Below are positions 14,181-19,708 of a DNA stretch of 64,000 bases, in pieces. Origin of the DNA: Enterobacteria phage vB_EcoM_IME339; sequence record MH051915. The stretch is one strand, 5' to 3'. Position numbers and translations under genes: made by a program. Below the pieces are notes generated by a model. It saw only the letters and a list, made by a program, of their open reading frames with translations, was not told where the DNA came from and ran no database searches. Numbering within the stretch: the first letter of the stretch is position 1; every line of letters begins with the position of its first letter.

Positions 14181-14350
14181 ATAGTTCTGAGTTACAGTAT
14201 GAAGTGTTACGTGAGCTTGATAATTTAATTGAACTCGCTGTCAATAAAGGTTTTGCCATTGGAATCGGTCAAAAAGATACTGGTCATTTAACTATGGAAA
14301 TATTTAAGCAAAAGCGAATTATTTTAAAACTCCTGGAAATTAATATATGA
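14177..14350 (+). CDS. small hypothetical protein
   Basis: 57 aa ORF not in track; ATGA overlaps on both sides. Confidence 0.4.
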   Translation: MNSSELQYEVLRELDNLIELAVNKGFAIGIGQKDTGHLTMEIFKQKRIILKLLEINI

Positions 14351-14532
14351 GTCTGAGTAAAGAACAAAAAGATAAATTGTTTGAGCTTATCCATGAACTT
14401 CTAGATGAGCATACAGAAGCAAACACCTTTTATGATGAATACGGCCCGCTATCTCCCGAACAGCAAGAAGAATTTGCTGATCGGTTTGATAAGAAAGAAA
14501 ACGAATTAATAGCTTATGTGAATACGCTTTAA
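14347..14532 (+). CDS. small acidic hypothetical protein
   Basis: 61 aa ORF. Confidence 0.45.
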   Translation: MSLSKEQKDKLFELIHELLDEHTEANTFYDEYGPLSPEQQEEFADRFDKKENELIAYVNTL

Positions 14533-16067: not shown

Positions 16068-16073
16068 CATTAG

Positions 16074-16095
16074 TCTCCTTCGGGAGACTTTTTTC
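16074..16095 (+). terminator. intrinsic terminator
   Basis: gtctccttcgggagac + tttttt. Confidence 0.7.
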
Positions 16096-16351: not shown

Positions 16352-16533
16352 TGATTAGTATCGAACAAGCAGATAAAATTAAAGAATTGGTAGCTTTAAT
16401 TCGCAAAGCAGATGAGGAACGCGTTAACTTTGCCTTATCAGGTATTGAAGAATTTGAAGCTAAAGTTGATAATGCTTTAGAAGCTTTAGATATGTTTCTT
16501 GATGAAATTATCGATCATAATACGAGAGTTTAA
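16351..16533 (+). CDS. small helical hypothetical protein
   Basis: ATG 16351 overlapping upstream stop (ORF track 16315). Confidence 0.45.
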   Translation: MISIEQADKIKELVALIRKADEERVNFALSGIEEFEAKVDNALEALDMFLDEIIDHNTRV

Positions 16534-16535
16534 GT

Positions 16536-16730
16536 ATGCTAACACGTGAACAGTTTGAAAAAATCATTAAATTAGCACGTGATATTGAAATAGATTCATA
16601 CCAATTGGCAGTTGAGCATTGTGAAGGATATTCATACGATGGTATAGAAGCAGCTAAAAAGGATTTGGATAAATCCAAAGCTAAGTTAGTTCAATATCTT
16701 GAAATGATTAGGTGGAATAATGAAAACTGA
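16536..16730 (+). CDS. small helical hypothetical protein
   Basis: 64 aa ORF. Confidence 0.45.
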   Translation: MLTREQFEKIIKLARDIEIDSYQLAVEHCEGYSYDGIEAAKKDLDKSKAKLVQYLEMIRWNNEN

Positions 16731-16893
16731 AAAGCAGATGTTTTTAATGAAGCTAATTGAAGAATATGCTAACGCAGTTTCTGACTATGAGTATTCTGCT
16801 CGGGAAAGAGGTACAGCTTTCGCAAAGGAAGAAATGAAAATCATGGTTGATGCTCACACAAAGCTTCAGAATTTTATTGAAAACGTCATTTAA
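16720..16893 (+). CDS. small hypothetical protein
   Basis: 57 aa ORF not in track; overlaps upstream stop. Confidence 0.4.
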   Translation: MKTEKQMFLMKLIEEYANAVSDYEYSARERGTAFAKEEMKIMVDAHTKLQNFIENVI

Positions 16894-16927
16894 TAGTTTA
16901 CAGGTTGGCAAGGTTATGGTATAGTAA
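16894..16927 (+). promoter_or_regulatory. T4-type early promoter
   Basis: tagtttacaggttggcaaggttatggtatagt. Confidence 0.5.
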
Positions 16928-17060
16928 TCTTGTCAACTGTCAAGGAGAAGAGAATGAAAGTTTTGTTTGTTGTGTATGTGATGATTCAATATAATTACCC
17001 AATGTTTACTTATAATCTGGTGAACAACATTATTGATATTATTCAAAGGAGTATGTAATT

Positions 17061-17618
17061 GTGAGTGAGTCGAAGAGAATCAATATGAAACGATTGGTAT
17101 TAGAAGTTAGTCCGCTTTTTGGCGAATTGGCTATAGAAAAAGTAAATAATATGTATCGTTTGACGCAAGAAGACGATATGCTATATTTTACGCCCAGTGA
17201 AATCATTCATTTAACCCAAATTGAAAATCCTTATACTGATAAAATTGTAAGCATTAATGATGAGCATAAAATTCATTTTTATTCTTCATGCCCAGGATTT
17301 AATATTGAAAGCGAGTCAATATGCTTATCAGTTATCCATTGGGACAGTTTTATAGATAAGATTAAATATTTTTATTATTCTAATGAAAGAAAACATAGTT
17401 TAAAATGGTTTAAAAATTGCAATGCTATTATTACTAACGCTTGCAATCAGAATGATGAAACTGTTTTAAACGTATCAAAATGTTATGAAGATGGAGACGT
17501 CTTAACTATTCGTCAAATTGACGATTTTCGATCGCATATTGTCACATTTACCAAAGACGAAGCTATTGCGCTAAAGACTTATCTTGATTCTGTCATTCCA
17601 ACTATGATTTCAAAGTGA
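17061..17618 (+). CDS. hypothetical protein, tandem paralog A
   Basis: 185 aa (GTG start in track); C-terminus FTKDEAIALKTYLDSVIPTMISK parallels next ORF. Confidence 0.5.
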   Translation: MSESKRINMKRLVLEVSPLFGELAIEKVNNMYRLTQEDDMLYFTPSEIIHLTQIENPYTDKIVSINDEHKIHFYSSCPGFNIESESICLSVIHWDSFIDKIKYFYYSNERKHSLKWFKNCNAIITNACNQNDETVLNVSKCYEDGDVLTIRQIDDFRSHIVTFTKDEAIALKTYLDSVIPTMISK

Positions 17619-17624
17619 GGAAAT

Positions 17625-18146
17625 ATGTTTATTTCAAGTGGAAGTGGTTTAATTCGTGTTGAATTTAAAAATGACATCTTCCTTATTCAAGGAGACGATA
17701 TTATTAAAATGAGTTATGATGAAATTAAGAAAATTTGTAATGCTCTTGAAAATCATGGAAAGGTGAATGCTGTCATTGATATTGGCGATTTATGGGTGAC
17801 ACTTTATGAAGTATCCGAAGGATTTAACATTGAAGATGAAAACAACATCTTAGCTATTGATAAAAGAAGCGATTTGTTTGATGTGTTAAAAGTTTATGAA
17901 CAGTCAAACGGTGGAAGAAAAGCTGCATTGATTTATCAAAAACCACATTCATGTGGAACTGCTTCAATTATTTCAGATATTGAAGATGAAACTGATACTT
18001 ATATGTGTATTTTAAAAGCTGGTGGTGACCGTCATCCGGATTTTATTTCTATTCGTCAAAACAATGGAGAAATTTCATTATCAAAATCAGAAGCTGAAGC
18101 TATGATTAAGTATTTAACAACTGTTACACCTTCAATGAAAGGATGA
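17625..18146 (+). CDS. hypothetical protein, tandem paralog B
   Basis: 173 aa; C-terminus LSKSEAEAMIKYLTTVTPSMKG parallels upstream ORF. Confidence 0.5.
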   Translation: MFISSGSGLIRVEFKNDIFLIQGDDIIKMSYDEIKKICNALENHGKVNAVIDIGDLWVTLYEVSEGFNIEDENNILAIDKRSDLFDVLKVYEQSNGGRKAALIYQKPHSCGTASIISDIEDETDTYMCILKAGGDRHPDFISIRQNNGEISLSKSEAEAMIKYLTTVTPSMKG

Positions 18147-18154
18147 TTATAATT

Positions 18155-18616
18155 ATGGTTATTAATGAAAACTCTTGGCATTATAAATTATTCAAAATGT
18201 TTAACGACGAATGGAAACGACCTAAGACACTGTGCGCGTATTTTTGGTCTATTGTTATCCCTACATTTTTCGTTTCTTTATTCGGATGTACTATGCTCGC
18301 AGGTCTAACTATTATCTGCGCAGAAATCATACAGAAATGGCTTATTTTTGGTAGTTTATGGACTCTTATTCCATCAGCATTTATACTTGCCATTTTGCTT
18401 GTTTTACTTATTATTGGTTCATTTGTTATTCCTGCACAACTGCATGAAAAATATAAAGATTATAAATGGAAAAAGGATTATGCTTTACATGTAGAAAATA
18501 TTGATAGGGCGTATAAAGGTTTACCTCCTATTCAACCCAAGAAATCTATTATCGTCGAATTTTTAAAAGCGCGCAAAGCTAAAGTATGTCCTGTTATTGA
18601 ATATAAGGCTGAATGA
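18155..18616 (+). CDS. membrane protein
   Basis: ORF track 18143; several hydrophobic helices. Confidence 0.5.
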   Translation: MVINENSWHYKLFKMFNDEWKRPKTLCAYFWSIVIPTFFVSLFGCTMLAGLTIICAEIIQKWLIFGSLWTLIPSAFILAILLVLLIIGSFVIPAQLHEKYKDYKWKKDYALHVENIDRAYKGLPPIQPKKSIIVEFLKARKAKVCPVIEYKAE

Positions 18617-19626
18617 TGAAAACAGTAATGAAAAGCTATTTTGGTAGTCATCTTTATGGAACTTCTACTCCAGAATCTGATGTAGATTTTAAAGAAATCT
18701 TTGTTCCTCCTGCTCGCGATATTCTTATCGGAAATGTTAAAGAGCATATGAGTAAAAACACTAACAACACATCATCTAAAAACACTAAAGATGATATTGA
18801 CCACGAACTATACAGTCTTAAGTATTTCTTTAAATTAGCAGCAGATGGTGAAACTGTAGCATTGGATATGCTCCACACTCCACCTGAACTTGTAGTTAAA
18901 TCTGATTTGCCTGATGTATGGAAGTTTATTCAAGATAATCGTTCTCGTTTTTATACGACTAACATGAAATCCTATTTAGGGTATGTTCGCAAGCAAGCTT
19001 CTAAATACGGTGTTAAGGGTTCTCGTTTGGCCGCATTACGTGATGTATTGAAAGTAGTTAATCAAATCCCTGAGCAATGGGTTGATTACCAAGAAGACGG
19101 CTCCATTAAGCAGCGTCGCACTAAAGTTGAAGATATTAAGCATCGTCTTCCAGAGAACGAATTCTGTGAATGGGTATTCCATAATCATGAGAAAACAGGT
19201 CCACAAACGTTCTACACTGTGTTGGGTCGTAAATATCAAACAACGCTTTCTCTTATTGAGCTTAAGCAGTCACTGAATAAATTAGATGCTGAATACGGCG
19301 AACGTGCTCGTAAGGCTGAAGCGAATGAGGGCATCGACTGGAAAGCTCTGAGTCATGCTTGTCGTGGTGGACTCCAACTATTGGAAATTTACAAAACTGG
19401 TGACTTAGTCTATCCACTTCAAGACGCTCCATTTATTCTCGACGTGAAGTTGGGTAAACATCCATTTAAAACTGTTCAAGAGTTTTTGGAAGATGTGGTC
19501 GATCAAGTAGAAGCAGCATCCATTGAAGCTTCTAAGAACGGTATGCAGCAAAAAGTAGACATGGGTTTCTGGGATGACTTCCTTGAGAGGGTTTATCTTG
19601 AAAACCATCGAAGTTATTATAAATGA
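18613..19626 (+). CDS. nucleotidyltransferase-fold protein (Pol-beta-like NTase motif), function unknown
   Basis: 337 aa; N-terminal GSHLYGTSTPESDVDF fits minimal NTase G[SG]-x9-13-[DE]x[DE]; ATGA overlap with upstream gene. Confidence 0.6.
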   Translation: MMKTVMKSYFGSHLYGTSTPESDVDFKEIFVPPARDILIGNVKEHMSKNTNNTSSKNTKDDIDHELYSLKYFFKLAADGETVALDMLHTPPELVVKSDLPDVWKFIQDNRSRFYTTNMKSYLGYVRKQASKYGVKGSRLAALRDVLKVVNQIPEQWVDYQEDGSIKQRRTKVEDIKHRLPENEFCEWVFHNHEKTGPQTFYTVLGRKYQTTLSLIELKQSLNKLDAEYGERARKAEANEGIDWKALSHACRGGLQLLEIYKTGDLVYPLQDAPFILDVKLGKHPFKTVQEFLEDVVDQVEAASIEASKNGMQQKVDMGFWDDFLERVYLENHRSYYK

Positions 19627-19651
19627 TAGGGAGCCTTCGGGCTCCCTTTTT
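19627..19651 (+). terminator. intrinsic terminator
   Basis: agggagccttcgggctccc + tttttt. Confidence 0.7.
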
Positions 19652-19669: not shown

Positions 19670-19708
19670 CAAAACGGTTTACAAGCATAAAGCTTTATGG
19701 TACTATAC
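19670..19708 (+). promoter_or_regulatory. T4-type early promoter in repeated cassette
   Basis: ttttcacaaaacgGTTTACAagcataaagctttaTGgTACTAT. Confidence 0.6.

Follow-up and report, generated by a model that had tools for sequence, protein, structure and literature searches.

A tandem pair of diverged MobD.1 (y05I) genes in the early region of a Tequatrovirus genome, and a candidate Pur-alpha/PC4-like layout for their products

The closest described relative of the gene pair reported here is mobD.1 of phage T4, a single gene encoding 181 aa. Our literature search found no functional study of this mobD.1/y05I family or of its counterparts in the RB phages. The entries for T4 mobD.1 in the HIDEN-SEQ supplement record 58 of its 59 insertion sites as hit and class the gene as non-essential; in one condition comparison listed there, its log2 fold change was -0.04, with no significant change. 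The segment of T4 that runs from nrdC.11 to mobD.3 is deletable.

Proteins of the PC4-like class provide the structural points of comparison. Two beta4-alpha repeats in one domain define type I of this class and a single repeat defines type II; both types are so far combined in Pur-alpha alone, and a lone repeat is unlikely to fold (PMC7549692). The PC4-like ssDNA-binding proteins (the T5 homolog 4bg7, YdbC and SP_0782) are small, single-repeat beta4-alpha homodimers, while the coat proteins of ssRNA phages (PP7/MS2 class) are a five-stranded type II form with unrelated biology (capsid formation and binding of an RNA operator). The PUR domains of Pur-alpha bind nucleic acid by basic and aromatic residues.

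The window analyzed here is a stretch of 64,000 nucleotides from Enterobacteria phage vB_EcoM_IME339 (sequence record MH051915), a segment of a Tequatrovirus (T4-like) genome; a 2.5-kb query around the pair found matches in 639 phage records, with 98% identity for the best of them. Genes at the locus follow the order tk, rI.1, rI, rI.-1, mobD.5 to mobD.2a, mobD.2, ORF1, ORF2, ORF3, nrdC.11 and nrdC.10, and the features of the locus are as follows:

16897..16925, + strand: early-type sigma-70 promoter (TTTACA-17-TATAGT plus TG extension), the best promoter match in the region
16954..17058, + strand: mobD.2 ortholog, 34 aa, starting MKVLFVVYVMIQ, first gene of the unit (from the ORF list and near-identical T4 DNA)
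17061..17618, + strand: ORF1, ortholog of T4 MobD.1 (y05I), with 185 aa if GTG 17061 is the start and 177 aa if ATG 17085 is
17094..17384, + strand: ORF1 N-domain, T4_y05I_N (Pfam, residues 12-108), with two predicted beta4-alpha repeats
17397..17606, + strand: ORF1 C-domain, T4_y05I_C (Pfam, residues 113-182), predicted beta5-alpha, with the conserved FTKxEAxALxxYLxxVIPTM helix at its end
17454..17463, + strand: GATGAAACTG, a 10-mer in ORF1 that is identical and in frame in ORF2 (17985-17994), 531 nt apart
17625..18146, + strand: ORF2, 173 aa, second and more diverged y05I-family paralog (BLASTP against ORF1; PF24449 and PF24448)
17628..17909, + strand: ORF2 N-domain, T4_y05I_N (Pfam, residues 2-95)
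17928..18137, + strand: ORF2 C-domain, T4_y05I_C (Pfam, residues 102-171)
18143..18616, + strand: ORF3, membrane protein of about 155 aa, RB69ORF104c-like (hydrophobic stretches; PHROG 944)
18613..19626, + strand: nrdC.11, Pol-beta-type nucleotidyltransferase of the RlaP family (PF10127; Pfam and PHROG 388)
19628..19647, + strand: intrinsic terminator-like hairpin (8 bp, 6 of them GC, with T-run), closing the unit

ORF1 and ORF2 are two diverged, full-length copies of the T4 MobD.1 (y05I) gene. The original prediction, made from the letters and their open reading frames, had placed two ORFs at 17061-17618 and 17625-18146 and had quoted parallel C-terminal segments for them, both correctly according to the ORF list. 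It had proposed a tandem duplication, and this is now well founded: BLASTP aligns the two proteins over 176 positions (28% identity, E=2e-10), they share their Pfam domains and both match PHROG 1502. The similarity reaches well beyond the last ~20 residues, and when the last ~40 are removed the alignment persists over 106 residues (E=1e-6). T4_y05I_N (PF24449) is found at E 2.8e-38 in ORF1 and 2e-34 in ORF2, and T4_y05I_C (PF24448) at 6e-21 and 4e-23; the scores for N and C (131 and 75 bits in ORF1, 118.6 and 82.1 in ORF2) are all above the curated gathering thresholds of Pfam (24.9 for T4_y05I_N, 27 for T4_y05I_C), and the N-to-C order is kept. A six-frame hmmsearch of the window found no third y05I copy. 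The family itself is already catalogued, through Pfam T4_y05I_N/C, PHROG 1502 and the GenBank names mobD.1a/mobD.1.

At 85% identity, ORF1 is orthologous to T4 MobD.1, and the two are alike in their position after mobD.2 and in their early promoter; ORF2 shares both Pfam domains with T4 MobD.1, arranged in the same order. This orthology is hidden by the naming in the GenBank record of ime09, where ORF1 is called “mobD.1a” and ORF2 “mobD.1.” Other records label ORF2 as RB32ORF097c-like. Annotated regions of ime09, T4, RB27, RB68, PP01, HX01 and IME341, together with the DNA alignment to T4, place y05I after mobD.2 and before nrdC.11. Unlike the window, T4 carries a single y05I copy: homology between T4 DNA and the window ends at 17643 (~19 nt into ORF2) and restarts at 18612 (the start of nrdC.11), and between these points T4 has the HNH homing-endonuclease gene mobD in place of ORF2 and ORF3. 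Because mobD replaces both genes and leaves ~19 nt of ORF2 behind, the single-copy state of T4 is derived.

Across phage records, an ORF1-type gene occurs in 727 and ORF2 in 482 (~430 of them at >90% identity), and mobD in only 47 records of the phage collection; two copies, both under selection and accompanied by the membrane-protein gene, are the common state in Tequatrovirus, and the reference phage T4 is atypical. Outside this genus there is one y05I copy, nearer to ORF1 than to ORF2: the Mosigvirus copy has 45-48% identity to ORF1, and Dhakavirus-type copies have 32-35% to ORF1 and ~26% to ORF2; ORF2 is ~26% identical to the single copies of other genera, against 28% to ORF1. In Tegunavirus the C-domain stands alone as a 74-aa protein. 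When 1.84 billion representative proteins were searched exhaustively with the HMM, only 22 matches came back, among them several stand-alone C-domain homologs (74-83 aa) that carry the FTKxEAxALxxYLxxVIPTM motif. Those that could be placed all belonged to T4-like phages or to phage sequence within bacterial assemblies; two matches in long proteins (1354 and 1208 aa) were disregarded, as they cover 16-29 residues. The y05I family is narrow and restricted to T4-like phages.

The promoter upstream of the pair is a strong one; the sequence around it hardly differs from the DNA upstream of T4 mobD.2, and it is the homolog of Pe57.9/Pe57954, listed among the T4 early promoters (PMC6024815). The ortholog that follows is nearly identical at the DNA level to the gene annotated as mobD.2 in T4, RB27 and RB68. 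The GTG start of ORF1 (17061) is 9 nt past AAGGAG, at the position of the T4 ATG start, and in T2 and P0029 MSESKRINMKRL begins with ATG where ORF1 has this GTG; ATG 17085, the annotated start in ime09, is the alternative. The Shine-Dalgarno sequence of ORF2 (GAGG) overlaps the ORF1 stop, and the stop of ORF2 overlaps the start of ORF3 in the same way as the stop of ORF3 overlaps the start of nrdC.11 (ATGA in both cases). With the promoter at one end, the hairpin after nrdC.11 at the other and coupled genes between them, the unit therefore comprises mobD.2, ORF1, ORF2, ORF3 and nrdC.11.

The small membrane protein predicted to follow the pair is ORF3, which has two long hydrophobic stretches (residues 29-65 and 66-103) and an alternative start at 18155; it matches PHROG 944 (“membrane protein”), and the annotations of related phages likewise give a membrane protein. 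The product of nrdC.11 is 98% identical to that of T4 and matches Pfam RlaP (PF10127, E=3e-11) as well as PHROG 388; those bacterial members of the family that have been characterized extend damaged RNA 3' ends by 1-2 nucleotides and contribute to the recovery of tRNA function (PMC12776372). Four genera share the order y05I gene, membrane protein, nrdC.11, although synteny among such collinear genomes is weak evidence. Moreover, 1516 phage records contain nrdC.11, about twice as many as y05I, and many of them belong to genera that carry no y05I gene, so that any functional coupling between the two is not obligate.

All three genes of the segment from ORF1 to ORF3 are under purifying selection as proteins in natural isolates, with dN/dS of 0.25 for ORF1, 0.14 for ORF2 and 0.17 for ORF3 (9-11 Tequatrovirus isolates, dS up to 0.3). 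The y05I copies are also dispensable in the laboratory and have repeatedly been lost, fused or frameshifted. Both copies are frameshifted in T2, and ORF2 of BMB16 contains an internal stop codon. A natural hybrid gene in P0011 joins the N-part of ORF1 to the C-part of ORF2, with its junction at GATGAAACTG; in phage TadeuszReichstein mobD.5 is fused to the C-terminus of ORF2, and one other contig joins the N-terminus of ORF1 to the C-terminus of nrdC.11. In RB27 and ESh25 the ORF1 allele is a mosaic, with DNA identity of 50-65% up to ~17500 and ~100% from ~17520.

AlphaFold2 models of ORF1 and ORF2, built with an 18-sequence alignment, have the same order of predicted elements (b4-a, b4-a, b5-a), so that the two proteins, as expected of duplicates, are not predicted to have unrelated folds. 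The N-domain has a pLDDT of ~90 in these models. The ORF1 model has an overall pLDDT of 79, and its N-domain scores ~82-93 by 10-residue block; in ORF2 the N-domain reaches ~84-94 by the same measure and the C-domain stays below 65 in the monomer model (42-78 for the C-domain across both monomer models). BFVD models of the stand-alone C-domains match at TM 0.74-0.83, and a Foldseek search of BFVD at E<=0.001 returned family members only, save for one Hyperionvirus protein at TM 0.26. In hhalign comparisons, repeat 1 matches the C-domain (P=2e-5) via a shared hairpin-helix motif, and repeat 2 matches neither repeat 1 nor the C-domain (E ~0.1), so that it is mostly the predicted structure that speaks for three repeats. 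Pfam DUF7189 falls on the same hairpin-helix of repeat 1 below threshold (6 of 14 family members, best E=3e-5) and was set aside, its function being also unknown and of no help here.

The predicted element order of y05I fits the PC4-like definition of PMC7549692, as secondary-structure order only. For neither model did Foldseek find a significant match to a PDB structure, the PC4-like matches listed having TM 0.29-0.40 and E of 0.06 or worse. The weak matches, all at E>=0.06, were Drosophila Pur-alpha for one model (3k44_B, probability 0.92, TM 0.38), human PURA for the other (8chv_D, probability 0.69, TM 0.36), the ssRNA-phage coat protein 9has (probability 0.92, TM 0.21-0.29), of a class that PMC7549692 assigns to this fold, and 2it9_D (probability 0.85, TM 0.40). 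We take 2it9 to be a two-repeat beta4-alpha protein of PC4-like fold in SCOP. Beta-rich proteins without any relation to this class, such as sliding clamp, Ctf4 and Pob3, score equal to or above these, and the Foldseek top matches (Ctf4, sliding clamps, Pob3, polo-box, hydroquinone dioxygenase) were rejected as generic beta-rich hits, with TM 0.15-0.37 and rmsd of at least 8 Å, mostly 16-24 Å. Profiles of PurA, Whirly, PC4 and DUF2128 matched none of 14 family members at E up to 10.

The likeness to Pur-alpha (3k44, 5fgp, 5fgo) would be one of layout: three predicted beta-sheet-plus-helix repeats, with repeats 1 and 2 joined in a single domain and repeat 3 set apart as a unit that other proteins have on its own. 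The differences are a TM below 0.4, five predicted strands in the third repeat of y05I, the lack of sequence or profile similarity and the acidic character of y05I as against the basic and aromatic residues of the PUR domains. The stand-alone C-domain proteins resemble the PC4-like proteins in size and predicted element order, but sequence relation to 4bg7, YdbC and SP_0782 is not detectable, the charge is opposite and none of the three was among the 50 structure matches listed per model. The five strands and helix predicted for the y05I C-domain recall the ssRNA-phage coat proteins as well.

The y05I proteins have pI 4.2-5.8, and their N-domains have pI 4.2-5.0 and carry net charges between -4 and -13; where polar positions are conserved in the family, they are mostly Q, D, E and N, and aromatic residues are frequent (8-14 per 100). 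Such a composition would be the opposite of a typical nucleic-acid-binding surface. No recognizable catalytic motif had been seen at the outset, and none emerged from Pfam, NCBIfam, PADLOC or the sequences of the PDB, which pointed to no enzyme family either; NCBIfam and PADLOC gave no match for ORF1-3, nrdC.11 or nrdC.10. Profiles of the whole protein, the N-domain and the C-domain against solved structures brought up hits at chance level only, a superantigen, a lyase and Utp7 among them. A reading of the conserved acids as a PD-(D/E)xK-like or metal site was dropped, with no supporting motif spacing or fold, as was a y05I motif in mobD.5, for which there was no Pfam support.

We put at about 0.5 the probability that the pair are early MobD.1 copies whose products have a three-repeat, dimerizing, Pur-alpha/PC4-like layout, as the models suggest. 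Each y05I protein would consist of three beta-sheet-plus-helix repeats, with repeats 1 and 2 packed into a self-contained N-terminal domain. Repeat 3, the C-domain, would not be satisfied alone and would pair with repeat 3 of a second molecule; we infer such a partner because stand-alone C-domain proteins exist and because the pLDDT of this domain is low in the monomer models. The products of ORF1 and ORF2 would then form homodimers or heterodimers and, early in infection, engage a binding partner. Single-stranded nucleic acid is one candidate; a nucleic-acid-handling protein of host or phage is at least as likely, since the y05I proteins are acidic. Their role would be an accessory one, in host interaction or counter-defense. 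It is with low confidence that we describe them as dimeric, Pur-alpha-like early accessory proteins that may bind nucleic acid or its handler, possibly together with NrdC.11.

Several other accounts of the pair draw on the same observations. The two proteins could be dedicated counter-defense or host-takeover factors that neutralize a host protein, for example as acidic mimics of nucleic acid, with the paralogs covering two variants or targets and the PC4/PUR likeness irrelevant. This is possible, if on the unlikely side: immediate-early expression, acidic composition, non-essentiality on E. coli K-12 and purifying selection on both copies in wild isolates are all consistent with it, as is their place in a hyperplastic stretch of accessory genes, where alleles are swapped and genes come and go, next to an nrdC cluster whose nrdC.1 was recently shown to inhibit Septu. 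Yet the condition comparison for mobD.1 in the HIDEN-SEQ entries gives it no help, we found no likeness to known anti-defense proteins (PADLOC, which covers defense systems only, had no match) and the account overlaps with the Pur-alpha/PC4-like layout instead of excluding it. More doubtful is a role as RNA- or ssDNA-binding cofactors that present damaged RNA ends, such as cleaved tRNA, to NrdC.11, perhaps at the membrane through ORF3. The shared early unit with its stop/start overlaps among ORF2, ORF3 and nrdC.11, the gene order conserved in four genera, the extension of damaged RNA 3' ends by 1-2 nucleotides by RlaP enzymes (PMC12776372) and the single-strand-binding fold to which a PUR/PC4-like topology belongs would suit such a role, but many nrdC.11 records belong to genera without y05I, T4 keeps nrdC.11 without ORF2 or ORF3, the y05I proteins are acidic and the fold assignment is itself a prediction.

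Very unlikely, in our judgment, are DNA-binding transcription factors that modulate host RNA polymerase or phage promoters. The beta4-alpha fold class is named “ssDNA-binding transcriptional regulator domain” in SCOP, and this name probably explains why Pfam describes the family as a “putative transcription factor,” a label that fits a predicted Pur-alpha/PC4-like architecture weakly. Apart from this label, the early timing, when T4 reprograms transcription, and the presence of the cofactors PC4, Whirly and Pur-alpha in the beta4-alpha class speak for such factors; on the other hand, Pfam and NCBIfam show no DNA-binding (HTH or other) or RNA-polymerase-binding domain in ORF1 or ORF2, the proteins and their conserved residues are acidic, and mobD.1 is dispensable even though T4 transcription has been studied intensively. 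We found no support for the label in the literature, nor an experimental basis for it. That the pair is decaying, functionless cargo with a pseudogenizing duplicate has the smallest probability of all. The T2 frameshifts, the internal stop in BMB16, the loss of ORF2 in T4 and the fusion and deletion variants would be expected of decay, but the selection analysis (dN/dS 0.14-0.25, counting both copies) contradicts it, ORF2 is intact at >90% identity in ~430 records and the ribosome-binding sites and coupled starts are conserved. The Pur-alpha/PC4-like layout can also be carried further than we would go: y05I may be the phage counterpart of Pur-alpha and a second known combination of type I and type II, with paralogs that heterodimerize via their C-terminal repeats and that form, with ORF3 and NrdC.11, an early module for RNA-end repair or counter-defense against RNA-cleaving host immunity, but we give this little credence.

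As matters stand, ORF1 and ORF2 are an unexceptional pair of accessory genes from a family already catalogued, with members in hundreds of sequenced phages. The three-repeat, dimer-requiring architecture suggested for their products is a concrete hypothesis that can be tested cheaply. A link to NrdC.11, if true, would be the sign of a new RNA-repair or counter-defense module in phages. The most useful practical point concerns the choice of phage: T4 lost ORF2 and ORF3 to a homing-endonuclease cassette, and T4-based genetics has therefore never probed either gene, so that T4 is the wrong phage in which to study them.

The y05I region, which holds the diverged paralogs ORF1 (the T4 mobD.1 ortholog) and ORF2, is a deletion hotspot. 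The homologous protein P0011 is a natural in-frame hybrid that joins the N-terminal part of ORF1 to the C-terminal part of ORF2, with its junction at a 10-nt microhomology common to both genes (17454-17463 in ORF1; 17985-17994 in ORF2). Natural in-frame hybrids also join mobD.5 to the C-terminus of ORF2 (P0012; phage TadeuszReichstein bas43_0212) and the N-terminus of ORF1 to the C-terminus of nrdC.11 (P0029). In the T2 record AP018813 (locus L006, 1940-3019) both y05I copies are broken by frameshifts that throw the middle section out of the reading frame but keep both terminal parts, N and C, in it; these frameshifts may be sequencing errors, but ORF1 is in pieces in a second T2 record as well. 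ORF2 of BMB16 (locus L015, 1301-1822) carries an internal stop.

In some Tequatroviruses, among them RB27 (locus L007, 2498-3040) and ESh25 (locus L016, 752-1294), the ORF1 allele is a mosaic. Its protein identity is 47-49% overall; compared with the window, DNA identity is only 50-65% from 17061 to about 17520 and then rises abruptly to ~100% inside the final ~100 nt of the gene. So sharp a switch near its end points to cassette exchange, with a breakpoint within the conserved C-terminal motif. The interval from mobD.2 to ORF1 also holds two additional small genes (186 bp and 267 bp) in several Tequatroviruses: both are present in T6 (L009), KMB42 (L010), phiD1 (L012) and BMB16 (L015), only the 186-bp gene is found in RB27 and ESh25, and the window has neither at this position.

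At the 3′ end of the operon, ATGA overlaps at the ORF2/ORF3 and ORF3/nrdC.11 junctions (window 18143-19626) suggest that translation is coupled at both. NrdC.11 is a nucleotidyltransferase of the RlaP family, and recent work has shown that enzymes of this family extend damaged RNA 3′ ends by 1-2 nucleotides (PMC12776372); the nrdC.11 gene occurs in 1516 phage records, often adjoined by a membrane-protein gene.

Just upstream of the y05I pair is a second and larger small-paralog family, whose helical members, each ~60 aa, are the 4 ORFs of the early region that match DUF7438 (PF24219) in Pfam (E 5e-13 to 3e-19):

14347-14532, tk.2
about 16354-16533, mobD.4
16536-16730, mobD.3
16720-16893, mobD.2a

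Two elements together bracket the early units that flank the y05I operon:

16072-16089, terminator-like hairpin 3′ of rI.-1
19678-19706, second early-type promoter (TTTACA-17-TACTAT with TG extension) upstream of nrdC.10

Misleading product names have been propagated in GenBank annotations of the homologous loci: mobD.x genes are labelled [quoted passage not shown] nrdC.11 “thioredoxin,” and rI.-1 “starvation-inducible transcriptional regulator,” while in the T2 and T6 records ORF1, ORF3 or fragments bear the labels “integrase/recombinase,” “prohead core protein” or “prohead core scaffold protein.”

When window 17644-18611 is set against T4 (NC_000866, 56429-57282; locus L002), ORF2 and ORF3 prove to be exactly replaced in T4 by mobD, an HNH homing-endonuclease gene, with the first ~19 nt of ORF2 persisting as a remnant. 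Since mobD is present in only 47 phage records, it is the reference T4 that represents the atypical state at this locus.
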